Source: a virus (Duplodnaviria > Caudoviricetes). Taken from it: 64,000 nucleotides of DNA. How positions within the stretch are numbered: position 1 is the stretch's first letter; each line of letters starts with the position of its first letter. Location: IMG/VR virus record IMGVR_UViG_3300033075_001021; one strand, 5' to 3'. A program made the translations under genes and the position numbers. The notes beneath the pieces were generated by a model. It was not told the origin of the DNA, did not search any database, and saw only the letters and a list, made by a program, of their open reading frames with translations. This document shows positions 356 to 57,473 of the stretch, one piece after another.

Positions 356-1366
356 TTAATATAAATATCCCAATTTGTCGACTTCTTTTACGGCTTGTAT
401 AAACCTTTCTTGGTAGTCCCCCCCTATTACAACATATTGAATTTTCTTTGCGTCTAACTCAGATTTAATTTTGTTAAAATGTTCTTTTCTCCTTTCTGGG
501 AAATCACGGGTTCCATCATCAACCCAAGGTATATCGATATCCAACAATATATAAAGGTCAAAATATTGTTTAAAAATAACTTCACCTATTACAGTCGAGT
601 CAAATTGTTCACCAAGATACATTTTTCCAAACACCTTAGTCGTTATTGCTTCAGTATCAACAAAAAGAACCTTGTTACCCCTTTTTAGTTTCTCACTAAT
701 AAGTTTTTGATGACCAATTGCAATATTTTCAAAATCTAACGGTGTTAGATTTTCCGTGCCGCTAATCTCTGTATATGTTCTACCATACTCTTCAACATAA
801 TCAGTACCATAATGGGTTGCTAACTTCTTAACTAGCGTTGATTTACCTGTTGATTCTGGACCAATGATAACAACACGCTTTGTGAAGTATGGTTTTACCA
901 CATCAGGAATAAACTTCCAATTTGCATATGGATTTTCTCTAACTGCTGTTCCAGAAACAGCATAGTGACTTCTTGGTTGGTCAACCAACACGTGTTTAAT
1001 CCCCAAATATTCGGCAAACTCATCACCGTATTCTTCAGATGTAAAAACAGCATCCAACTTTTTTATGCGATTATAGACACTGGGGACCCAATATTTCTTA
1101 TAAAAAACATCAACCGATTCACACTCATGTGGATATTGTGGATTTGGGTCAGTACACCATATAATACGAATGTTAGGTTTATCTTTATAGATTTCCTTCA
1201 GCCAACCATACCTTAACCAGCCATCGATTGGTTGTGTTCCGTCAGAGCAAATCATAACGTGGGTTGTTTTACATTGCTCAGCTGCTGTATCAATTAAATA
1301 CAGATGCCCACGTTGCGGTGGCATGAATTTACCCAATACTAAACCGTTGTCATATTTTTTACCCAT
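356..1366 (-). CDS. nadR: NadR-like bifunctional NMN adenylyltransferase / ribosylnicotinamide kinase (no HTH)
   Basis: N-terminal GKFMPPQRGH (HIGH-like) and VSGTAVR motifs. C-terminal P-loop GPESTGKS, EYGRTY, LFVDT, PWVDDGTR. Confidence 0.9.
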   Translation of the reverse strand: MGKKYDNGLVLGKFMPPQRGHLYLIDTAAEQCKTTHVMICSDGTQPIDGWLRYGWLKEIYKDKPNIRIIWCTDPNPQYPHECESVDVFYKKYWVPSVYNRIKKLDAVFTSEEYGDEFAEYLGIKHVLVDQPRSHYAVSGTAVRENPYANWKFIPDVVKPYFTKRVVIIGPESTGKSTLVKKLATHYGTDYVEEYGRTYTEISGTENLTPLDFENIAIGHQKLISEKLKRGNKVLFVDTEAITTKVFGKMYLGEQFDSTVIGEVIFKQYFDLYILLDIDIPWVDDGTRDFPERRKEHFNKIKSELDAKKIQYVVIGGDYQERFIQAVKEVDKLGYLY

Positions 1367-1878
1367 TTTGTTGCTCCTTTAATTGAAAAACCGATTAAAA
1401 TAAAAAACAATATCGCTGACCAGTACATTCCTTGATTTAAAAACATTATTATAAAAAGTACATCAGCAATAATCCATGTAAAAAAACCATGAATATACTT
1501 TTTTGCCAAATACCAATTCCCTAACATACTTAGAAGAGTTGTCAAAACATCTAATTCTGCTTGTGGGTTATCAGTATATCTTTTTAACAAAGGTACCGTA
1601 ATAAATCCAATTAAACAAACAATTAATAGGTCTCTGACCCAAATATTGTGGTTTAATAATATGCAAGATTCATCTTGTGTCGCTTTCCAATAATACCAAC
1701 CATATATGCATTGTCCTAATATGATGGTATCGGCTATAACTTGACCATATAGATGCTCATTAAAGACTAGATAAATGTAAATCAACGTTGCAAGAATCGC
1801 TGAGGGCCAACAAAGCACGTTTACCTTTACAGTGTAATATGCTGAAATAAGTGTTAATATTACCGCTATTATTTCCAT
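1339..1878 (-). CDS. pnuC: PnuC-family nicotinamide riboside/vitamin transporter
   Basis: Multi-TM protein with YGWYYW, D..TT.LS..GNWYLAKKY and WIIAD motifs. Overlaps nadR and ends in TAG. Confidence 0.88.
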   Translation of the reverse strand: MEIIAVILTLISAYYTVKVNVLCWPSAILATLIYIYLVFNEHLYGQVIADTIILGQCIYGWYYWKATQDESCILLNHNIWVRDLLIVCLIGFITVPLLKRYTDNPQAELDVLTTLLSMLGNWYLAKKYIHGFFTWIIADVLFIIMFLNQGMYWSAILFFILIGFSIKGATKWVKNMTTV

Positions 1879-2051
1879 TACTCATCGAATAATTTTCTTT
1901 CCTTTAAGGAATTAAATAATTTATCCGCTCTTTCTTTTGCTTCACGAATAAACTTTATATGTTTGGCCCTTCGTATAATCTTACGAATACCACCAATTGT
2001 TTTTACTTTCTTACCCCTTTTGTTGCCCCAGTAAAGATATTGTCCTTTCAT
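1878..2051 (-). CDS. Small basic hypothetical protein (57 aa)
   Basis: MKGQYLYWGNKRGKKVKTIGGIRKIIRRAKHIKFIREAKERADKLFNSLKERKLFDE*. ATGA overlap with the TonB receptor stop and TAATG overlap with the pnuC start. Confidence 0.7.
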   Translation of the reverse strand: MKGQYLYWGNKRGKKVKTIGGIRKIIRRAKHIKFIREAKERADKLFNSLKERKLFDE

Positions 2052-4015
2052 ATTTTAATTCTTAAGGTTACAAAATAATTTGCCAATGCCGTTGGGAATA
2101 AAAATCGCTTATTGTTCATCGCATAGCCATTAAAATAGAACTTGTTATTTGTGATGTTATTACCTTGAAGTGACAACACAAGATTCTTATATGAATATGA
2201 TGCATTAAACCCAATGGTTGTACATGCTGGTACGCTAAACTGATTTTCAATGTCAATATAAGCCTTAGAATAAATTGACTGATTTACATTCATTGAAAAT
2301 GCCTTGTTTGTATAGGTCAATGATTGATTGAACATTCGATTAGGACTGAATAATTGTTGTTTATTATCAACACTAAAACGACTGTTTGAAATGCTGCCAT
2401 TCACGCTATACTGAAAGGATTTGTTAATTGTATAATCAATGTCAAATTCAATTCCCTTCCTAAAACTCTTGTCAACATTAATCATCATCGGTAAGCTATT
2501 TGCCCCCATCGGGCCAGCTGGAATGATTTCATTTTGAAATGACATGTAATACAAGTTTGCTTGTAATGTCAATTTATCACCTTTATGGTTTACCCCAAGT
2601 TCAAGGTCAACTACTTCCTCTGGTTTAACGTTGTTTAAATCAGTTAAGTAAAGACCACCATTAAATAAAATATTCCTTGTTGGTTCCCTATGCGACATAC
2701 CAATTGAATAGTAAACATCAGTGTTTTTATCCAAAAAATATTTAAAACCAACCTTTGGATTTGTAAATAACCAAGTGTATTTACCTAATGCTTTATCCCC
2801 AACATATTTAAAATCAACATACCTTGCTTGCAAATCAAAATACATCTTGAGTTCCTCAGGCCCAAAGATTAATTTAACAAAGCTACTGGCTTCATTTTTA
2901 TTTCCATAATTTTGGTAGTTGCTCTTCAATACACTACTGTCAACCATTACGAATTCAGTACCAAAGTGATTTCGCCTATATGTATTCAACGATAAACCAA
3001 CAGATAGCTTTATGTTATCATTTTTGTAATCATATTGTGTTATATAACCAGCCCAATTTGAATATTGATTCTCTTGTGCATAATAACCAAGTGTTGGTAA
3101 AGACTCTTTATTAAAGACATCGTAATTACCTTCCAAGTGATTAACAAATAAGATACTTGTTAGTTTACTTTGTTTATTAAAGATGTTGGTGTTATGTATT
3201 TGGATATGGGTTTGATTGAAAAAGTCTTTCCTGTCATTACCCCTAGGATTATCACGATAATTAACCTTCAGCACATCTTCATCAGATGCCTCCCACGCCA
3301 TTTGGTTTCGGCTAAATCCGCTAAACACAACAAATTTAGTAATGCGTTTTTCACCATAATACCCACGGGTATAAAATATACTACCACCGTGGCTTCCAGA
3401 ATTCCGCCTAAACCCATCAGTTGTCATCATACCAACATTTAAAAAGCTTGCGTGTTTATTTTTCAATCCGCTTGAATACGCAGCATTCAATCTGAAAGTA
3501 TTAAATGAACCACCACCAATTTGAACCTCAGAACCACGGTTTAAACCTGTCTTGCTTTGGAAATTAATAGACCCAATAAAGGCAGCGCTACCATTCGTTG
3601 ATGAACCAACCCCTCGTTGAATCTGAATTGATTGAATAGCGTTGATAAAGCTTGGGAAGTTTGATGTATACACACCATGGTCTTCAGGCTCATTTAATGG
3701 GACACTATTTAATGTCATATTAATGCGGTTCTGACTGGCACCTCGCATACTAACGTATGTATAGCCTTGTGAGTGACCACCATCTGTATTTGAATACATT
3801 GACGGATATGACCCTAATAAAATTGGTACCTCTTGACCTTGATAACTAGACTGAATGGCTGTATCCCCGATTGTTTTCTGGGTTATAGGGGTGAACTTAT
3901 CAGCCCTAACCGCAGTAACTAAAACAGGTGACATTTCGGTAATCTTTACTGAATCCTGTGCAAATGATTGATAACCAATTAGTGATACTAATGCAAATAC
4001 AAATAATTTTTTCAT
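2048..4015 (-). CDS. TonB-dependent outer-membrane receptor (Bacteroidota vitamin-uptake type)
   Basis: Signal peptide MKKLFVFALVSLIGYQSFAQ; plug motifs SMRGASQNRINMTLNSVPLNEPED and IQIQRGVGSSTNG..AF.GSIN; beta-barrel-like alternating pattern; LQGNNITN near the C-terminus. Confidence 0.88.
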   Translation of the reverse strand: MKKLFVFALVSLIGYQSFAQDSVKITEMSPVLVTAVRADKFTPITQKTIGDTAIQSSYQGQEVPILLGSYPSMYSNTDGGHSQGYTYVSMRGASQNRINMTLNSVPLNEPEDHGVYTSNFPSFINAIQSIQIQRGVGSSTNGSAAFIGSINFQSKTGLNRGSEVQIGGGSFNTFRLNAAYSSGLKNKHASFLNVGMMTTDGFRRNSGSHGGSIFYTRGYYGEKRITKFVVFSGFSRNQMAWEASDEDVLKVNYRDNPRGNDRKDFFNQTHIQIHNTNIFNKQSKLTSILFVNHLEGNYDVFNKESLPTLGYYAQENQYSNWAGYITQYDYKNDNIKLSVGLSLNTYRRNHFGTEFVMVDSSVLKSNYQNYGNKNEASSFVKLIFGPEELKMYFDLQARYVDFKYVGDKALGKYTWLFTNPKVGFKYFLDKNTDVYYSIGMSHREPTRNILFNGGLYLTDLNNVKPEEVVDLELGVNHKGDKLTLQANLYYMSFQNEIIPAGPMGANSLPMMINVDKSFRKGIEFDIDYTINKSFQYSVNGSISNSRFSVDNKQQLFSPNRMFNQSLTYTNKAFSMNVNQSIYSKAYIDIENQFSVPACTTIGFNASYSYKNLVLSLQGNNITNNKFYFNGYAMNNKRFLFPTALANYFVTLRIKI

Positions 4016-4919: not shown

Positions 4920-4967
4920 AACTGTTTGTTTTTTAATAAATATACTGTTTTTGTTAAAAATATCAAG

Positions 4968-5039
4968 TGACCCAGAGGGGATTCGAACCCCTACCCACAA
5001 TTTTAGAGATTGGTGTGCTGCCATTACAACCACAGGGCC
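4968..5039 (-). tRNA. Amber suppressor tRNA, anticodon CUA
   Basis: GGCCCTG/CTGGGTC acceptor stem, anticodon loop CTCTAAA, T-arm AGGGG-TTCGAAT-CCCCT, A73; CCA not encoded. TATCTTTG promoter box at 5050-5057. Confidence 0.88.
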
Positions 5040-5082: not shown

Positions 5083-5880
5083 TTATTTTATCAAAAATTT
5101 TCCAAGCCTTTTTACCCTTTCTTTTAATTGCTCATACGTCCCATTATTATCAATTATAATATCTGCGTCTTGTTTGGTTATATTAAAAGAACTTGAATCT
5201 TCTTGTGGAAGTCTTTCCGATGCATCCACCCAAATGATTAGGTCAAATAGATTTTGGTTTCTACATTCTTGAATTTCAGTCCAATCTCTCATACCAACAT
5301 AGGTATTATTATACTTCAAGATTTCTTTAGCCAATTTAGCCTTGTCATCTTTGTTATAATCACAAATCATTTGGTACCATTCGTCTCTGTGATTAATCCT
5401 ATCTTGAAAACATTCTTCTGGCGTTTTATAACCATATTTGTCTTTAAGTTCATTATAGATGAAAATGTCGGCACACGCTTGAGATGATGAGATAAAATTT
5501 ATTCCATAATACTCTTTTAATAATTCGGCTACCGTATCTTTCCCATGCCGAGCATGTCCTATTATTAGCAAATTTATATTATTATAAAACTCCTTAGAAT
5601 ATTTATGGTGTTCATAAATTTGTTCTAGTGTATACGCATCATAGGCAACAAATCCTCTGGTATCCAATGTTTTCTCAATATGAAGTTTCGCAGATGATTG
5701 TTCAATACTTAGATAATTATAAAACTTAATAGCTTCCTCTGGATTAAAAAATTCTATTATTTGTCCTTCAACGGCTTTTTCTTTCGCTTCAGCAATATCC
5801 ATATTGAGATATTTTCTAAGATACTTAAAAACTTCTACTTTGTTTATTGAAATGAGTTCAACTTTACAAATATTTTTCAT
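5083..5880 (-). CDS. Deoxynucleoside monophosphate kinase-like P-loop protein with an N-terminal bL12(L7/L12)-CTD-like domain
   Basis: Kinase motifs IIGHARHGKDT, GMR...E, IIWVDASER, ADIIIDNNGT. N-terminus NKVEVFKYLRKYLNMDIAEAKEK resembles bL12 NKVAVIKAVR..TGLGLKEAKDL. Confidence 0.7.
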   Translation of the reverse strand: MKNICKVELISINKVEVFKYLRKYLNMDIAEAKEKAVEGQIIEFFNPEEAIKFYNYLSIEQSSAKLHIEKTLDTRGFVAYDAYTLEQIYEHHKYSKEFYNNINLLIIGHARHGKDTVAELLKEYYGINFISSSQACADIFIYNELKDKYGYKTPEECFQDRINHRDEWYQMICDYNKDDKAKLAKEILKYNNTYVGMRDWTEIQECRNQNLFDLIIWVDASERLPQEDSSSFNITKQDADIIIDNNGTYEQLKERVKRLGKFLIK

Positions 5881-5907: not shown

Positions 5908-6588
5908 TTAGACAAGTAAATTTACACGACCTTTATAGATATCTTTTATACTAGCTGTTTTATTGGTAATATGGTCAATGACAATCCCATCTTTAACACG
6001 ATATGTCCTACGTTTATCACTTCGCTCACCAGTACCAATCTGTTCCCTTCTTGTCTCAGATTCTTCTTCCATAAAACCAGTTAAATAATAGTGATTAACT
6101 CTTCGTTTAATTTCTTTATAGGCATCTTCACGATTACTTAATTGGCTTCTACCATCACGTACAACCTTTATACCAGTTGGGATATGTGTCATAATGACAC
6201 AAGAGTCCGTGGTGTTTTTATGTTGACCACCTTTGCCAGTTCCTCTGGTTGTTTCAATCTTTAGTTCATGTTGGGGAATTTCAATCTCTTTAAATGATTG
6301 ATTTTCAAGTACGGCAATGGTTATGGTACTGGTATGCACCCTACCACGATTTTCTGTCGGTGGTACACGTTGCCATCTGTGTGAACCTATTTCGTTTTGG
6401 AAAAAATCTTTGACATTTTGGCCGCTTAGTCAGATTGAAGCAAAGCCATCCCGTTCTTCGAGAACTCTTCAGTTGAAGTTATTGTTTTTGGCCGCTTTGA
6501 TATAGATGTCTTTCATATCATGAACTAGCAATTTGGAATCTTGTCCACCTTCGCTAGCCCTAATCTCTAGTGTAATTTCGTTTTTCAT
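5908..6588 (-). CDS. Class I peptide chain release factor, RF1-like (PxT), lacking domain 1, with two in-frame TGA codons
   Basis: MKNEITLEIRASEGGQDSKLLVHDMKDIYIKAAKNNNFN*RVLEERDGFASI*LSGQNVKDFFQNEIGSHRWQRVPPTENRGRVHTS...GKGGQHKNTTDS...RSQLSNR...GERSDKRRTY. TGA at 6469-6471 and 6430-6432; one frame throughout (227 codons). Confidence 0.9.
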
Positions 6589-6976: not shown

Positions 6977-6981
6977 TTTTG

Positions 6982-7066
6982 TTGCGGGAGTAGGATTCGA
7001 ACCTACACTTGCATTTGATGTCTCTAGGTTATGAGCCTAGCATGTTGCCAATTACACTATCCCGCT
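6982..7066 (-). tRNA. tRNA with CAU anticodon (Met/fMet/Ile2) and an unusually long variable region
   Basis: GCGGGA/TCCCGC acceptor with an A1xA72 mismatch, CTAGG-CTCATAA-CCTAG anticodon arm, 17-nt variable region, GTAGG-TTCGAAT-CCTAC T-arm. Confidence 0.85.
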
Positions 7067-7072
7067 ATGTTG

Positions 7073-7144
7073 TTGCGAGGGGTGGATTCGAACCACCGAC
7101 CTTCTGGTTATGAGCCAGACGAGCTGCCGCTGCTCCACCTCACA
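7073..7144 (-). tRNA. tRNA-Met(CAU), initiator-like body
   Basis: TGTGAGG/CCTCGCA acceptor, TGGAGCAGCGGCAGCTCG D-arm, TCTGG-CTCATAA-CCAGA anticodon arm, GGTGG-TTCGAAT-CCACC T-arm. Confidence 0.92.
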
Positions 7145-8854: not shown

Positions 8855-8902
8855 ATCTATATATTTCTATATAAATATGCGCTAGGTACAAAAAAGTCAT
8901 CG

Positions 8903-9256
8903 TGGAGAATATCGGAATCGAACCGATGTCTTGTGCATTCTTCAAAAGCTTTCTACATGTTTAGAACAGAACTTTCTAGTTCTTCGCAATATCTTGCTGT
9001 TATGGTTAACAAGAAAACCACGGAGTTATTTAGCGTCTAACTCAGAACTGACGGTTTTTGGTGGTCTACCACCATCGCAGGATTAGGCTACTGCAAGCTC
9101 TCCTGAACCCACAGTTAGGACTGCTTCGTCAAGGAAATTTTCTGATACGATAAAATCGTTGTCGTTTGTTTTTTGATAGACATTTTAAAGTGCATTCCAA
9201 TCTAGCACTACATGCTTACTAATTACGACTATACGCAATCAATACCTGTATTCCCC
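8903..9256 (-). ncRNA. ssrA: tmRNA
   Basis: GGGGAAT/ATTCTCC-A acceptor with G3:U70; T-arm ATCGG-TTCGATT-CCGAT; internal tag ORF (A)DNDFIVSENFLDEAVLTVGSGELAVA*. Confidence 0.92.
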
Positions 9257-50522: not shown

Positions 50523-53500
50523 TATCCTATTTCTATTTGACAGCCAATGTTATCATACACGTCAATTGTTACTGGTGTACTTACATTAAAATTTACATAA
50601 TTCCAAACAACCAAATATGGGTCTGCGTTAGGTGTTTGACTTACTGGAAGCACCTCAACACCGTTAATTTGTGCCGTTATTGGTGCTTCTCCACCAACAA
50701 CACTAAATGCCGTTGTTGACCCAGTAACTACATTGTATACTCGCATACCTTGTCTTATGTATATTATTGTTTCTGTTGTTTGTGGTGTTGGTTCACCTGA
50801 ATCTGTAACTACTACCTTATAGTAACCACTACATAAATCATTTTGTATTGTATCACCACTTGTGCTTATTGTTACTATTGTATATGGTCCCGCTTGTGTT
50901 GTTGCTGAATATGTTGTAACAGAATATGGTGGTGTACCACCAATAACGTCAAATCCATATGAACCACTACAATCATTTGCACAAGCATTATATGATTCAA
51001 TATTAGTTATTTGTAATGGCTGTGGTCCTCTTATTTCTATGGTTTTTGTACATTGATGGCCAGCATTATCGCTTGCTATAAATGTATAAACATCATCTTT
51101 GAATCCAACAGGAATTGTGTATCCAATTGGGTCAGTTGTGAATGTTAATGGTGGTGTATATAATGAGTTACTCGAATCATAAATTGATAATGTATATGGT
51201 AAGGTTCCATTCGTTATTGCTATAATTTCAATTACACCATCCGCAGAGGTCTGAGTTGACGGTGCGCCGCTAATTGAATATGAACAACTAAATCCTAATG
51301 GTTGGCCAACAGTTACTTCTTTAACAACTACTGTCCCAAGTGCGTCAATGGCTGTAATTTGATATGTCCCAGCTTCTAAACCAGTTATTATACCACCAGC
51401 TGGAAGAGTTGTGGTTGTAATTGGGCCAAGTGAATAGCTTACATCAACTCCAACCCAAGTATATGTAAATGGATATGTGCCACCTATAAAGGTAAACGAA
51501 ATTGAGCCGTTTGACGCACCACTAACTGAAACATTTGTTGGTGTTGTATCAATGATAAAATCACCAGCTCTTTCTCTTGTACAATCTGTAAAGTATTTTG
51601 TTTTTAGTTTATCCAATGCTGTTTTACCTGGTATAATACCAAAATACATATAATATGAATTTTTTGTTTGGAAACTCATATCTTCACCATTTTCATATGG
51701 TGGTATCCAACCTCTAAATTCGTTATATGCATCACCATTTCTAATTGATAAGTCAACGCCTATCGATGTGCCTTGGTTAGGGTCTAATAAGTTATATGGT
51801 ACTGTTGGTATCGCTTGTATGCTCGTACCACTTATGTTTAAAAGATAAAATGAGTCTCTCAGGTACCTATTTAAACTTGTAAGTGTATCGATTGGGTCAG
51901 ATGAATCATAAATCTCATCAATATTAATTAAATCTATCTGTGTCAAACCAGTGTACTCAAGTAAATCGATACTAAGTTCACATTGTCTTCTAATGTTTCT
52001 AGCTTTGATTGCATCGTAATCAACACCTTTTGAACATCCGACGTTAAAGAAAACACCTTTGTAATTTATACCATTAGGTGGTGTAAAATCAAACATACCA
52101 GCCACAACTGATTGGTCATCTTGTGGAATGTCAGTATCATCTTCCTCTGAAAAAGTTTCAGCCAACAATGGTGGTAGCTTATAAGATGTATTTGTAAGGT
52201 AATTTACAATCTTTGGTAATCCTTGCCAATCACAATCAAAAACAGCACCTAGATTTACAATATCGGTTGCAAAAAGTTTTAATTGTGACCCATTTAATAA
52301 CATTGGTGGGTAATAAAGGGTATTATCATGTTTAACCAATAAGCCATTTCTAAAGTTTACTCTAGTATCACTACTTCTTGTATTGTAAGTAGTGTCAACA
52401 ATCTTACTATTTTTACATGAGTTATAACCAGTACCACCACTGTAATCATTACAATTTGTTTCGCAGAATTTTTCTCTACCTCTTCTTTTCTTCTTATACT
52501 TTAATAGATAATAGTACAATGTACCATTAATCCAATCATTAAAGAAATCTAATTCATACAAATCTAATTGCTCAGCTAACACCGCTGATACACAGTCTAG
52601 ATAAGCATCTAATTTATCGGTATCGGTACATCCAATTGCATATTGACTCTCGTCCTCGTTAGGACATTTAAGTTTAATTAAAAACTTTCTTAAAAAACCA
52701 AATGGTCGTATACGTAAAATTTTAATTTTAATTAAAGCACATAAAAACCCATTAAAAAGTTGTACAATAAATCCAATGATTGAAAACAAAAAGCAAATAA
52801 TTGTAAACAATATGTTTCCGCTTACATGTGCTCTATTATAAGGCATTGGTGACTTGTCGCCAACACAGCCATCGACGTTTTTAATACCAGTATGTGTTCT
52901 ACGTTTATATGCTTTTGTTAATGAAAGCATATTTTTTTCAGTTCTAGGTATAAAGTTTCTTACACTATATATTTTGTTCCAATAAAAATCTCTAAACGTA
53001 TTTTCAGTATCTTTTGTTGTTTTATCAAAACTAAAGTCAATATCTGATTTTGTTTTTGGGTTATGTGGTACAATGTATTTTCCTCTTGTCCTAAGTCTAC
53101 CAACACCACCACCTTCATCCATACTAATTCTAAATCTAACTCTACTTCTAGTTGGGATACCTCTACTAGGGTCATCGGATGGGACTAAATTACCTTCTTC
53201 ATCAGTAACGACATAATCTAAGTTCATGGGTATTTGATATGCCCATGCACCATTATCATCAATAAGCCTACCACCGTCAATATCATATTTTTCAATTTCC
53301 CCTTCAAGTGTTTTTCTAAGCATTTCAATGGTTCCAGCTCTTGGTACTTGTTCGCACATGAGTCCCATTCTCTTTCTTGGCCTACATCTTTTATTAATGC
53401 TATTTTTTCTACTATCACCAAAAATACTACCCATAAAGATAGCACATGGTCTGATATTGTAATTTAAGTCAATATCCAATCTATTTATCCCAATTACACA

Positions 53501-54631: not shown

Positions 54632-56446
54632 TTATTTAACCCTTACAATGATATCAACCGCTGGATATTTTATTTCAAACATGGTTGTTGGTTCACCGAA
54701 AAGTGTATATTCTTCAGAAGTATCAATTTCTCTTGTTGAGGCGTCAAAATAAGGCTGAGATATTTCATTAAGCGAATATCTACCACCGACCATATTATAC
54801 ACTCTCATATCAATAACGTTTAATACGCCAGCGACATTATTTATATTTTCAAGTAAATTTGAAAGATAAACGTTTTCACCCATGTCGAATTTATTAATGT
54901 TCATGTAATCACTAACACTCGTTATCACATTGCTAATGATTTGTGATTGTGGATACTTTTTGTCGATATAAACATCTATCTGGAATGATAAATTTACAAT
55001 TTTAGCATCTGCAATCTCAACATAATCATTTAACATTCTATAGTCAGATAAATATGTTGCAATGTTCTCCTTAATAGCTGTTGTTGATGTATTGTTTAGT
55101 TTACCCTCAGAATCTAGACCCATGATGTAAACCTTAATTTTATTTTGTTCTTCAAAAACACCTGTTCTAAACGGAACCCCAAATCTACTTGGCATTAGTG
55201 CTATCCTAGACTGGTAATCTTTGATGGTTACAGCCCTATTTTGTGCTGCAAAGTTATATCTGACCAAATTTCTGATTTCTTCTACACTTGGGACATCTCT
55301 ACCTCCCAGCGCTGGAATGGGGTTATTTACGCTTAATGACGCTTTTACTGCATTGTTTATTGTGGTATCCACACCATTTACAATTATGGTTGCAATACCA
55401 ACACTATTTATTATACCTTGACCAAGATTTGTATCAGCACCACCACCAACTCTATACTTAACAAATAATGTTGTATTTGGTGATAATGTGGTTCCTAGTG
55501 AAAGGTTATTGATAAAATCACCAATTTGATTTACGATTGACGGATTAACATCAAAATCACAAAGTGAGCTAATATCTTGATTTCCACCGCCAAATATCAT
55601 TCTCATAAACCCTAAATCAGTATATTCTGTAATAAATTTACGATTAACCTTAATATATTTACCTGGTCTAATTGATGGATTATCAGTGATTTTGTTAAAA
55701 TCTTCAACAAAAACTTTATCTTCAGCCAAAGCATCAACTTCATACCACCTGTTGCTTTCCTCTAAAAACTGTGCATTTGTTGGGTCTGTTACAAAATTGG
55801 TTCCGTTAAGTGTAATAACAGATGTAACAGAAAGAACGTTATCGTCTGGTAATACAACCTCAAGAAACGGAACAACATCAGCTGGGGTAATAACCTTCTG
55901 GTAAATTTTTGTAAAGCCGTTTACAACCATTTCTCTTTTGGTGATGGTGTAATTTATCAAAACACCGTTTGTATTAAAGTTTGGAATTACTATTCTATTT
56001 GGAACCCCACCAACACTAAATGGTGATGAAAAATCTATATCGTAAATTGTTTCAAAAACCTTTCCAGCACCTGTAACTTGGGCCCCAGCTTGAATGATTG
56101 GTGCATACGACACGTCGAACGAGTCGCCTAAAACTGGAACGGTAACAGTAAAATCAACAATTGTAACAGATGGACGGCGACCTGGTATTTTTAAACCAAA
56201 TGTTCTTGCCATTGATAAAATTGATGACCTTTCTTGTGCGTAGTCAATTTGGGTTTCTTGGAACATTCTATCGGTGTTAAACGATAACATATCGCCAACA
56301 GCGGCATTTAGTTCAAGAAGCATCATACCAACAGATGCGTCGTTAAAATCATTAAAGATATCTGGATAGTATTGTCTTACCATGTTGACCAAATCGGTCC
56401 TTATATCGGCAAAATTTCTACTAGTGTAATTAACTCTTTGTGCCAT
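54632..56446 (-). CDS. Baseplate wedge protein (T4 gp6/gpJ-like)
   Basis: NYTSRNFADIRTDL, A..RSSILSMAR..G, YRVGGG...N, AQNRAVTIKDY. Confidence 0.88.
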   Translation of the reverse strand: MAQRVNYTSRNFADIRTDLVNMVRQYYPDIFNDFNDASVGMMLLELNAAVGDMLSFNTDRMFQETQIDYAQERSSILSMARTFGLKIPGRRPSVTIVDFTVTVPVLGDSFDVSYAPIIQAGAQVTGAGKVFETIYDIDFSSPFSVGGVPNRIVIPNFNTNGVLINYTITKREMVVNGFTKIYQKVITPADVVPFLEVVLPDDNVLSVTSVITLNGTNFVTDPTNAQFLEESNRWYEVDALAEDKVFVEDFNKITDNPSIRPGKYIKVNRKFITEYTDLGFMRMIFGGGNQDISSLCDFDVNPSIVNQIGDFINNLSLGTTLSPNTTLFVKYRVGGGADTNLGQGIINSVGIATIIVNGVDTTINNAVKASLSVNNPIPALGGRDVPSVEEIRNLVRYNFAAQNRAVTIKDYQSRIALMPSRFGVPFRTGVFEEQNKIKVYIMGLDSEGKLNNTSTTAIKENIATYLSDYRMLNDYVEIADAKIVNLSFQIDVYIDKKYPQSQIISNVITSVSDYMNINKFDMGENVYLSNLLENINNVAGVLNVIDMRVYNMVGGRYSLNEISQPYFDASTREIDTSEEYTLFGEPTTMFEIKYPAVDIIVRVK

Positions 56447-56448
56447 AA

Positions 56449-56832
56449 TTATACATTTATTATTACAAAATCATTTATTTCAAAAACATCATCAGTTATC
56501 GCATAATCCATTCTAATTGTCGCTGCGTACTCGCTATCATCGCTTTGAGTTACTGTTAAATTTTTTACAATTAGGTTTGGTAGATACTTTTTAACTGACG
56601 TAGTAACCTCATCTTTAATAGCCTCTAAGGTCAAATCATGATTTGGTTCGAATATGTACCTTAATAAATCGGTACCAAAATTTGGATTATATAGTCTTTG
56701 ACCCTTCCTGGTCAATAACAAATGCATCAAATCTGCTTTAATAGCTCTTTGGTCGTTATCGTTTAGGTTTAAAAAGAAACCCTTAGGGCTATCTTTAAAG
56801 GGGAAGTCAATATTTATGTATTTTCCAGCCAT
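56449..56832 (-). CDS. Baseplate gp25/gpW-like protein
   Basis: IKADLMHLLLTRKGQRLYNPNFGTDL..YIFEP. Confidence 0.9.
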   Translation of the reverse strand: MAGKYINIDFPFKDSPKGFFLNLNDNDQRAIKADLMHLLLTRKGQRLYNPNFGTDLLRYIFEPNHDLTLEAIKDEVTTSVKKYLPNLIVKNLTVTQSDDSEYAATIRMDYAITDDVFEINDFVIINV

Positions 56833-56909
56833 ATTTTCGGTTTATTGATAAATATGGTAAGAAAACATTTTCACAAGTAAATGTATAAAAAAAGGGGTAT
56901 CCCCTTTCC

Positions 56910-57473
56910 TTATTGATGCTTTGCAATTAATTTACACATTTCTATAAAATATTCAATATTTAAAACATTTTTCATTAAATTTATATCCTTATGAACAAAC
57001 TGAACATTGCCTTTAATATATCCTTTGTTTGAATCAATTCTATCAACTGATGCTGTTGACTTACTTAATTCAAAGGTTGTACCATTTTTTGGGAATGTTA
57101 ATTCTAAACCACTTAAAGCACAACGTTTATTTTGTTTTAAAAATAATTCCCACATATATTCAATATCAACATCAACCTCCTTTATTTTTCGATTACCTTT
57201 AGAACCATTTGCAGCTCTAATTATTTTATTATGAAACCAACCAGCACTTATTTCGCCAACACCTTGCCAATGTGGGGAATTTGAGCCAGATGGTGGTTTA
57301 TAACAACCACAACTAGAAAATTTACTCCTAATAATTGAAGTTCCAGTTCTAACCGCAATATTACCACAATCGCATTTACATTTAAACTTTAAATGACCAG
57401 CTGGCGTTACATCGGCTTCTTCTATTACCATTAGATATCCAAATTTTTTACCTACTAAATCTAACTTTTTCAT
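56910..57473 (-). CDS. Free-standing HNH-type (His-Cys) homing endonuclease-like protein
   Basis: GKKFGYL.V, KCKCDCGN, SCGC, CALSG, SVDRIDSNKGYIKGNVQFVHKDINLMK. Confidence 0.8.
   Translation of the reverse strand: MKKLDLVGKKFGYLMVIEEADVTPAGHLKFKCKCDCGNIAVRTGTSIIRSKFSSCGCYKPPSGSNSPHWQGVGEISAGWFHNKIIRAANGSKGNRKIKEVDVDIEYMWELFLKQNKRCALSGLELTFPKNGTTFELSKSTASVDRIDSNKGYIKGNVQFVHKDINLMKNVLNIEYFIEMCKLIAKHQ

Follow-up and report, generated by a model that had tools for sequence, protein, structure and literature searches.

Why should a phage that uses the standard genetic code interrupt its own peptide-chain release factor (RF) gene with two in-frame stop codons? The question is raised by a minus-strand gene in a 64,000-nucleotide stretch of tailed-phage DNA (Duplodnaviria; Caudoviricetes; IMG/VR record IMGVR_UViG_3300033075_001021), hereafter the window, which encodes a factor of the RF1 type and yields its full product only if UGA is read through at codon 40 and again at codon 53. 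Because nearly all relatives of this gene carry a UGA, a UAG or a +1 frameshift site in one short region, the interruptions apparently represent a conserved, undescribed control device and not a broken gene. Our preferred reading, to which we assign a probability of roughly 0.7, is that programmed UGA readthrough gates the RF1-type factor and would tie its synthesis to weak RF2-dependent termination.

The open reading frame (ORF) track of the window reports only the C-terminal 143 residues, starting at a GTG at 6339, as the first-pass annotation of the locus had correctly remarked. That annotation had further claimed that homology to release factors continues upstream in the same frame to an ATG, broken by TGA at codons 40 and 53 without a frameshift and with the P-P-T and GGQ motifs intact; reading of the frame and the Pfam, NCBIfam and phmmer searches agree with it on every point. 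The minus-strand frame runs from ATG 6588 to the TAA at 5908-5910 through 226 sense or stop positions with no frameshift (Table 1). With TGA read as a residue, Pfam recovers the RF-1 domain (2.8e-25) and, over profile positions 100-194 of 194, the PCRF domain (2.8e-19); domain 1, which is the first half of PCRF, is missing from the protein. The NCBIfam models rank RF1 (198 bits, model positions 104-334 of 347) above RF2 (112) and PrfH (72), with all scores below cut-off, including those of the RF1 equivalogs (198.5 against 400 for NF001859 and 190 against 423 for TIGR00019), and a weak match to ArfB is seen across the GGQ region. A phmmer search of solved structures aligns the protein to residues 88-311 of Thermotoga maritima RF1, with RF1 found at 3e-40. 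The AlphaFold model, computed with 32 homologues as input, has a predicted local distance difference test (pLDDT) score of 89 and superposes on ribosome-bound RF1 with a template-modelling (TM) score of 0.90-0.91 and a root-mean-square deviation of 2.2 A; in this model the two UGA codons fall in two adjacent beta-strands after the first helix. GGQ is invariant in 32 of 32 aligned homologues. Together, the profile matches and the predicted structure identify the protein as an RF1 derivative made up of domains 2, 3 and 4. An upstream ORF of 65 residues was considered as a split-off domain 1 and rejected, as neither Pfam nor PHROG gave a match to it and the related locus L008 lacks it.

The interruptions are a property of the family. 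We compared five regions from huge-phage records, 82 IMG/VR loci and one locus from a metagenome-assembled genome (MAG). Of 87 homologues of huge (Mahaphage-type) phages, or 78 unique coding sequences (CDS), about 84 display a recoding signal within codons 38-55. The most frequent type, with 29 unique CDS, is a TGA at column 38 (GGC TGA ACT); it is with this column, and not with codon 40 of the window gene, that the conserved tryptophan of RF1 (the GW motif) aligns. TGA at 53 accounts for 14 unique CDS and the window's own type, TGA at both 40 and 53, for 11; the 74% identical L118 (PLXT01000115.1) likewise has TGA at these two positions. Four unique CDS have TGA at 45 and 53, two have TGA at 45 plus TAG at 53, and a few have a single TGA or TAG at 39, 40, 45 or 49. 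Over all types, column 40 is occupied by TGA in 14 unique homologues and column 53 by TGA in 29 and by TAG in two. A different solution, a +1 shift at codon 54/55 within TGY CTT TAG C (CTT TGA C in L054), is found in 10 unique CDS, two of which additionally carry TGA at 40, and one more gene, L007, has a +1 shift at CTT TGA C near codon 40. Across these +1-shift genes (L006, L007, L026-L029, L031, L042, L050, L054 and L079), the slippery heptamer is CTT TGA C in L007 and L054 and CTT TAG C in the other nine. Two unique CDS show no signal (L005, L074), the type is ambiguous in one (L058), and an in-frame TAA was encountered once, far downstream (L030). On a maximum-likelihood tree built with IQ-TREE the signal types interconvert, with at least 18 changes when L007, despite its CTT TGA C, is scored as 'none', and the signal is lost only in the clade uniting L005 and L074.

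This distribution bears directly on the possibility that the window gene is a decaying pseudogene or an assembly error. Two premature stops within 226 codons would ordinarily invite such an explanation, and decay is known in the family, in that the complete 362-kb relative G003 has true fragments of a second RF copy. However, stops recur at the same columns across dozens of divergent genomes and independent assemblies, and the homologues that share these columns are 41-78% identical, so that they do not stem from one clonal contaminant. Furthermore, the gene shows no frameshifts and no TAA stops, its motifs are intact, and its omega is about 0.1. Logan contigs from three independent studies (freshwater, digester and riverine metagenomes) cover both TGA codons and are identical there, while four substitutions are seen elsewhere in the gene (K26R, P105L, a silent change at G116, and K119N); since the contigs vary at these four other sites and never at the TGAs, both stops are genuine and stably kept in the population. 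The earlier view that selection explains the gene better than decay is thereby borne out, given the recurrent columns and the purifying selection over the entire frame, and we attach next to no credence to a pseudogene or an assembly artefact. As for G003 itself, its intact RF gene (55214-55882, minus strand; loci L088-L106), with TGA at 53, is flanked by the pieces of the second copy: an N-terminal piece (56717-56920, minus strand) that spans codons 1-66 and has TGA at both 40 and 53, and a piece running from GGQ to the end (51923-52204, minus strand). It looks as if a cassette with one RF allele had been inserted into another.

If the stops are genuine, is the region upstream of them actually translated? 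Pooled pN/pS ratios (Nei-Gojobori, 14 pairs) are 0.18 upstream of the stops (codons 1-37), 0.40 between them (codons 41-52) and 0.24 downstream (codons 56-226), and comparison of the window gene with L008 and L009 gives an omega of 0.09-0.13 in each of the three segments. Five residues upstream of the stops, E8, G14, G15, D17 and K19, are invariant. As purifying selection acts on all segments and these upstream residues do not vary, the pattern of substitution indicates that the entire frame is translated. The same data speak to a reading with no readthrough at all, in which only a C-terminal protein would be made from GTG 6339, with the GGQ domain and part of domain 4 in its 143 residues, to act as a codon-independent hydrolase of the ArfB type while the upstream part stayed untranslated or gave a short peptide. 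The 143-residue ORF, the fragments of 160-184 residues called on long contigs and the weak ArfB match over the GGQ region would agree with it. Against it stand the purifying selection on codons 1-37 and 41-52 with the invariant residues just listed, the location of the conserved P-P-T recognition loop upstream of GTG 6339, and the lack of conservation of the internal start, as the fragments of the relatives begin at different residues; we consider it very improbable. There is a weak hint of transcription in a contig from an RNA library that spans 5972-6202, which is part of the gene only and might reflect DNA carry-over.

The nucleotides that follow the stops are likewise non-random. The +4 base after 80 in-frame TGAs is A in 52, C in 25, G in three and T in none, as opposed to a +4 T in 13 of 37 true TGA terminators of the window, G001 (an 83-kb contig of the closest relative) and G003 (Fisher p = 6e-8, uncorrected for shared ancestry); T-initial codons make up 21% of sense codons. 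The leucine codon after stop 53 is CTN in 22 of 22 cases (CTA 12, CTG 9, CTC 1) and never TTA or TTG, although these two constitute 62-75% of the leucine codons in the genomes of the window phage and its relatives. UGA termination is weak with +4 C and tight with +4 U, and UGA followed by A is misread by tRNA-Trp (work summarised in PMC5289835). These 3' base statistics support the earlier claim that the two UGAs of the window gene lie in leaky contexts. Hallmarks of programmed readthrough are present, namely a conserved stop position, coding constraint on both sides and a leaky context; a prfB-type +1 frameshift, on the other hand, is not what the window gene has, as frame 0 is kept across both TGAs. 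RNAalifold on 13 sequences predicted no pairs that would make up a conserved RNA structure around or downstream of codon 53, and a GTTAG/CTAAC inverted repeat spotted by eye was discarded, as it is confined to one clade. No element resembling a Shine-Dalgarno (SD) sequence was seen at the window gene.

Table 1. Features of the release-factor locus in the 64,000-nucleotide window
Feature	Position	Strand	Remarks
RF1-derived release-factor gene without domain 1	5908..6588	-	226 codons plus TAA; full product needs two UGA readthroughs
In-frame UGA, codon 40	6469..6471	-	AAC UGA AGA, +4 A; beta-strand 39-46, domain 2
In-frame UGA, codon 53	6430..6432	-	AUC UGA CUA, +4 C; beta-strand 49-56
P-P-T tripeptide (PxT, RF1-type stop-codon recognition)	6355..6363	-	codons 76-78; Gln73 upstream
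Catalytic GGQ motif	6223..6231	-	codons 120-122
tRNA with anticodon CUA (amber suppressor)	4967..5039	-	downstream of RF gene; conserved neighbour
Two tRNA(CAU) genes	6981..7144	-	directly upstream of RF gene; conserved neighbours
Phage-encoded transfer-messenger RNA (tmRNA)	8900..9256	-	conserved in same neighbourhood

Is the in-frame UGA then an ordinary sense codon of a recoded phage? A genome-wide reading of TGA as Trp or of TAG as Gln was ruled out by ORF lists under code 11, code 4 and TAG as Gln, by stop usage and by scans for split ORFs and gap extensions. TGA terminates 11 of the 55 window ORFs, including four consecutive ATGA overlaps and a DnaJ homologue, and reading through these terminators gains just a few codons; TAG terminates two of the 55, no window gene needs it to be read through, and the TAG-as-Gln reading brings no change of substance. 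The coding density under code 11 is 89-92%, and code 4 extends the N-terminus of the RF gene only. Similarly, TGA ends 65 of 460 long open frames in G003, where a genome scan found the RF gene to be the sole gene with an N-terminus recoverable only by TGA readthrough. In the window phage and its relatives TAA ends 77% of genes and TGA 14-20%. ARAGORN found no tRNA(UCA) among the 45 tRNAs of G003, the 31 of G001 and the 59 of the tRNA regions of LR756501, all three of which have tRNA(CUA) and tRNA-Trp(CCA); Rfam found neither a SECIS element nor a tRNA-Sec for selenocysteine in the window.

These observations also weigh on a subtler version of recoding, in which an undetected suppressor or modified tRNA would switch UGA to Trp late in infection and the RF gene would be written in this late code. 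The TGA-recoded Jade phages carry RF1, a tryptophanyl-tRNA synthetase (TrpRS) and tRNA(UCA), and suppressor tRNAs were detected in just 35-40% of recoded phages (preprint 10.1101/2021.08.26.457843); moreover, the relatives of the window phage encode tRNA-Trp(CCA), and column 38 is that of the conserved RF1 tryptophan. Yet, besides the absence of a tRNA(UCA) from the ARAGORN results for G003, G001 and LR756501 and the use of TGA as a regular terminator even in ATGA overlaps, no other gene of G003 or the window requires TGA readthrough, and the code-change genes of the Jade phages are themselves in the standard code (same preprint). Further, a TAG or a +1 site can stand in for TGA at the same place, as would be expected of a termination sensor but not of a Trp codon. 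Such dedicated decoding is in our estimate unlikely.

Which stop codons the product itself would recognize bears on the logic of the device. Alignment to solved RF1 shows that the window protein keeps the RF1-type recognition residues (Q73, P-P-T, E79 and HTST) and reveals in it no RF2-like ones. Its motifs predict a working phage-borne class-I release factor that reads UAA and UAG. The loop is more variable in some relatives: S-P-T replaces P-P-T in five of them (L009, L031, L038, L042 and L049), and the Gln ahead of the R-V/I-P-P-T stretch is swapped for I, V, L, N, H or S in many. By published rules such changes, both to S-P-T and of the Gln, might make stop-codon specificity broader or tighter: under the tripeptide rule reported by Ito et al. 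in 2000, a factor with S-P-T would accept G as second base as well, and the Gln before the loop is what enables RF1 to tolerate G as third base. This Gln is retained by almost all relatives with UAG-based signals.

The first-pass annotation had left two options for a doubly interrupted gene of this kind: that the factor is cross-regulated by a codon that it does not read, or that its specificity has been altered so that it reads UGA and regulates itself. The residues favor the first, since the RF1-type set is kept whole in the window protein. A factor that reads UGA, alone or with UAA and UAG, would give true negative autoregulation as in prfB, and the family does have features in keeping with this: an invariant Asp at the position equivalent to the Glu of the GGxE tip in RF1 and RF2; S-P-T in the five relatives mentioned above; and, in L007, CTT TGA C, the exact prfB site. 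Against this stand the complete set of recognition residues of the window protein, its much better score with RF1 than with RF2, and the near-constant Gln of the relatives with UAG signals, as expected of an RF1-type reader. An altered specificity thus appears to us improbable.

Returning to programmed readthrough tied to RF2, we envisage that a ribosome arriving at UGA-40 or UGA-53 would either terminate through host RF2 or accept a near-cognate tRNA, which would insert a residue and continue. The inserting tRNA would most likely be tRNA-Trp(CCA), a gene for which is present in related phages too. With A and C at their respective +4 positions, both UGAs would be weak terminators. The yield of full-length protein would be the product of two readthrough probabilities, or roughly the square of readthrough, and would climb steeply when the capacity for RF2-dependent termination is small compared with the supply of the tRNA. 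Because the RF1-type residues are kept, host RF2 is probably the sole reader of UGA, and production of the factor is expected to rise when RF2 becomes limiting; the sensor codon would probably not be read by the product, which amounts to cross-regulation by RF2. The purpose may be to furnish extra release capacity at UAA and UAG when the shared pool is strained. In the relatives that combine UAG-based signals with the Gln, direct autoregulation would fit. The likely hosts offer a favorable setting: in Flavobacterium johnsoniae (phylum Bacteroidota), there is far less RF2 than RF1, UGA is the least used of the stops (0.07) and ribosomes stay for a long time on the UGA of prfB (PMC10798248), and therefore UGA may be naturally leaky in such hosts.

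Several points weigh against this proposal. With two UGAs to pass in succession, very little full-length protein might be made. The stop-free subgroup (L005 and L074; P0075, P0083, P0098 and others) indicates that gating is not obligatory in the family. A tRNA(UCA) or other decoder may sit in the part of the phage genome beyond the 64-kb window, and ARAGORN can miss odd tRNAs. The comparison of homologues at codons 40 and 53 that had been proposed with the original observation finds TGA recurring at both, and it also finds that stop-free relatives never have TGG (Trp) at columns 40, 45 or 53, while column 53 is Cys (TGY) in all frameshift variants, as is column 40 in several of them. Owing to this absence of TGG and the use of Cys, the inserted residue may not be Trp; Cys may be inserted at UGA, or TGY may instead belong to the sequence context needed for the frameshift.

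The gene structure has consequences for databases. On long contigs gene callers give fragments of 160-184 residues, which means that RF genes of this phage family get split or truncated in annotation. Among the public proteins examined (P0001-P0053), full-length ones with W at the stop columns (40, 45 and 53) are found on contigs of less than 5 kb only, and from this restriction they are probably gene calls made under code 4. A 171-kb contig bearing the RF gene has been binned in a 'Methanobacterium' MAG and is probably a mis-binned phage contig.

The wider setting of the gene is that of a very large phage. The top tblastn matches of the RF gene are to LR745206, LR756501-4 and LR756511, 'uncultured phage' genomes of 595-735 kb, and the Mahaphage clade, with predicted Bacteroidetes hosts, takes in all genomes over 634 kb of Al-Shayeb et al. 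(PMC7162821). The window has a GC content of 34% and, under code 11, is almost wholly coding on the minus strand. Its products include a GIY-YIG endonuclease, ClpP, DnaJ, Ro-like and SbcC-like proteins, a dNMP-kinase-like protein and ribonucleotide reductase, along with three tRNAs and one tmRNA. At 356-4015 (minus strand), a NadR-like nicotinamide mononucleotide (NMN) adenylyltransferase, a PnuC-like transporter and a 655-residue TonB-dependent receptor follow one another in what looks like an auxiliary gene set for NAD salvage and uptake. Closer to the RF gene, the order tmRNA, two tRNA-Met, RF, kinase-like gene, tRNA(CUA) and tRNA-Cys is common to L008-L018, L023 and L027. The tRNA(CUA), with one or two copies per genome, is also near the RF gene in L028, L031 and the G003, G001 and LR756501 regions, and tRNA-Cys(GCA) adjoins it in L008, L015-L018, L023, L027 and L029. 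A functional link between tRNA(CUA) and the RF gene is suggested by this proximity. The pairing is puzzling, in that an RF1-type factor and an amber suppressor are rivals for UAG. In-frame TAG does occur in the RF genes of a few relatives. Similarity to other phage tRNAs gave no assignment of the amino acid carried by the CUA suppressor, the top match being at 74%. The tmRNA tag predicted by ARAGORN is VGSGELAVA in the window and has 25 residues with the same GELAVA end in the closest relatives (L008, 732-1086); one or the other may have been assigned a wrong resume codon. ARAGORN also reports tRNA-like genes with anticodon loops of 8 or 6 bases ('agac', 'ttac', 'ga', 'ta') in G003 (5320-5393 and 305591-305666) and in the LR756501 regions L114 and L115.

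Taken together with this neighborhood, the gene might belong to a termination-takeover module of huge Bacteroidota phages, a tentative idea that we hold with less than even confidence. Such a module would comprise the tmRNA, the tRNAs including tRNA(CUA), and the domain-1-less factor as a combined sensor and effector: the early stop, either UGA read by host RF2 or UAG read by RF1-type factors, would gauge free termination capacity and set the amount of phage factor for the dominant UAA stops of the phage, with readthrough and +1 shift repeatedly exchanged as the means of doing so. If this were true, its UGA version would provide the first example from nature in which the activity of one RF controls the synthesis of the other RF type. 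Regardless of this, the family offers a natural variant series of single UGA, double UGA, UAG, CUU-UAG-C and CUU-UGA-C, with which the tuning of readthrough and frameshifting in the SD-blind ribosomes of Bacteroidota can be tested, and it raises questions regarding the role of a release factor without domain 1 and the manipulation of host termination by giant phages.

Programmed UGA readthrough is itself familiar from viruses: in the A1 protein of phage Q-beta a leaky UGA in a weak 3' context is decoded by a near-cognate tRNA and gives a longer product at low frequency. There, however, an abundant protein is lengthened at its C-terminus by readthrough, whereas in the window gene nothing functional would be made without it and two stops lie in series. 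PrfH (RF-H), which is paired with RtcB2, resembles the window protein in its lack of domain 1, its GGQ motif and its comparable length. This likeness, noted at the outset, holds for the missing domain but does not extend to kinship, as the protein is RF1-derived (198 bits against 72, the PrfH cut-off in TIGR03072 being 166.65) and retains the RF1-type PxT loop. No RtcB was found among the window proteins scanned; a 483-residue neighbor (phrog_850) considered in this connection proved to be a DUF2828/DUF7788 protein. The TGA-recoded Jade phages, with RF1, and the TAG-recoded Lak and Agate phages, with RF2, are comparable as large phages equipped with release factors, suppressor tRNAs and tmRNA (preprint 10.1101/2021.08.26.457843). 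They differ in that the Jade phages keep their code-change genes in the standard code, while here the genome as a whole is standard-coded and only the RF gene has in-frame stops. In huge phages RF1 and RF2 have been listed with their frames uncommented (Al-Shayeb et al. 2020, PMC7162821), RF2 with TAG recoding is the sole mention in a 2026 jumbo-phage survey, and our full-text literature search turned up no account of phage RF1-type genes with in-frame stops or frameshift sites. In plant eRF1, too, RF expression is set by stop-codon readthrough that reports termination capacity (PMC5397192); this eukaryotic system employs the gene's own terminator and nonsense-mediated decay (NMD), with the sensor read by the product, as opposed to the internal stops of the window gene.

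The closest parallel is bacterial prfB, where the amount of RF2 made is set by whether RF2 acts at CUU UGA C or a +1 slip occurs there first (PMC10798248). In both systems an early in-frame stop makes the synthesis of a class-I RF depend on termination efficiency, and some relatives of the window gene even use the prfB heptamer. Nevertheless, prfB relies on a +1 frameshift at codon 26, within domain 1 and in the arrangement SD-N3-CUU UGA C, whereas the window gene relies on frame-0 readthrough at codons 40 and 53 and has no domain 1. Likewise, the prfB sensor is read by its own product, RF2, whereas the product of the window gene is of the RF1 type and its sensor is probably read by RF2. A 2025 survey of 12,753 bacterial genomes came upon no case of programmed frameshifting in prfA, nor of a TAG in the prfB motif (PMC12421855); in contrast to its conclusion, the phage family described here suggests that RF1-type genes can be stop-codon gated. 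On the strength of the sequence comparisons we regard the phage genes as a new variant of the autoregulatory recoding of release factors, kept across a large phage family and probably working by the mechanism proposed above, in a role that has until now been a textbook feature of RF2 only.
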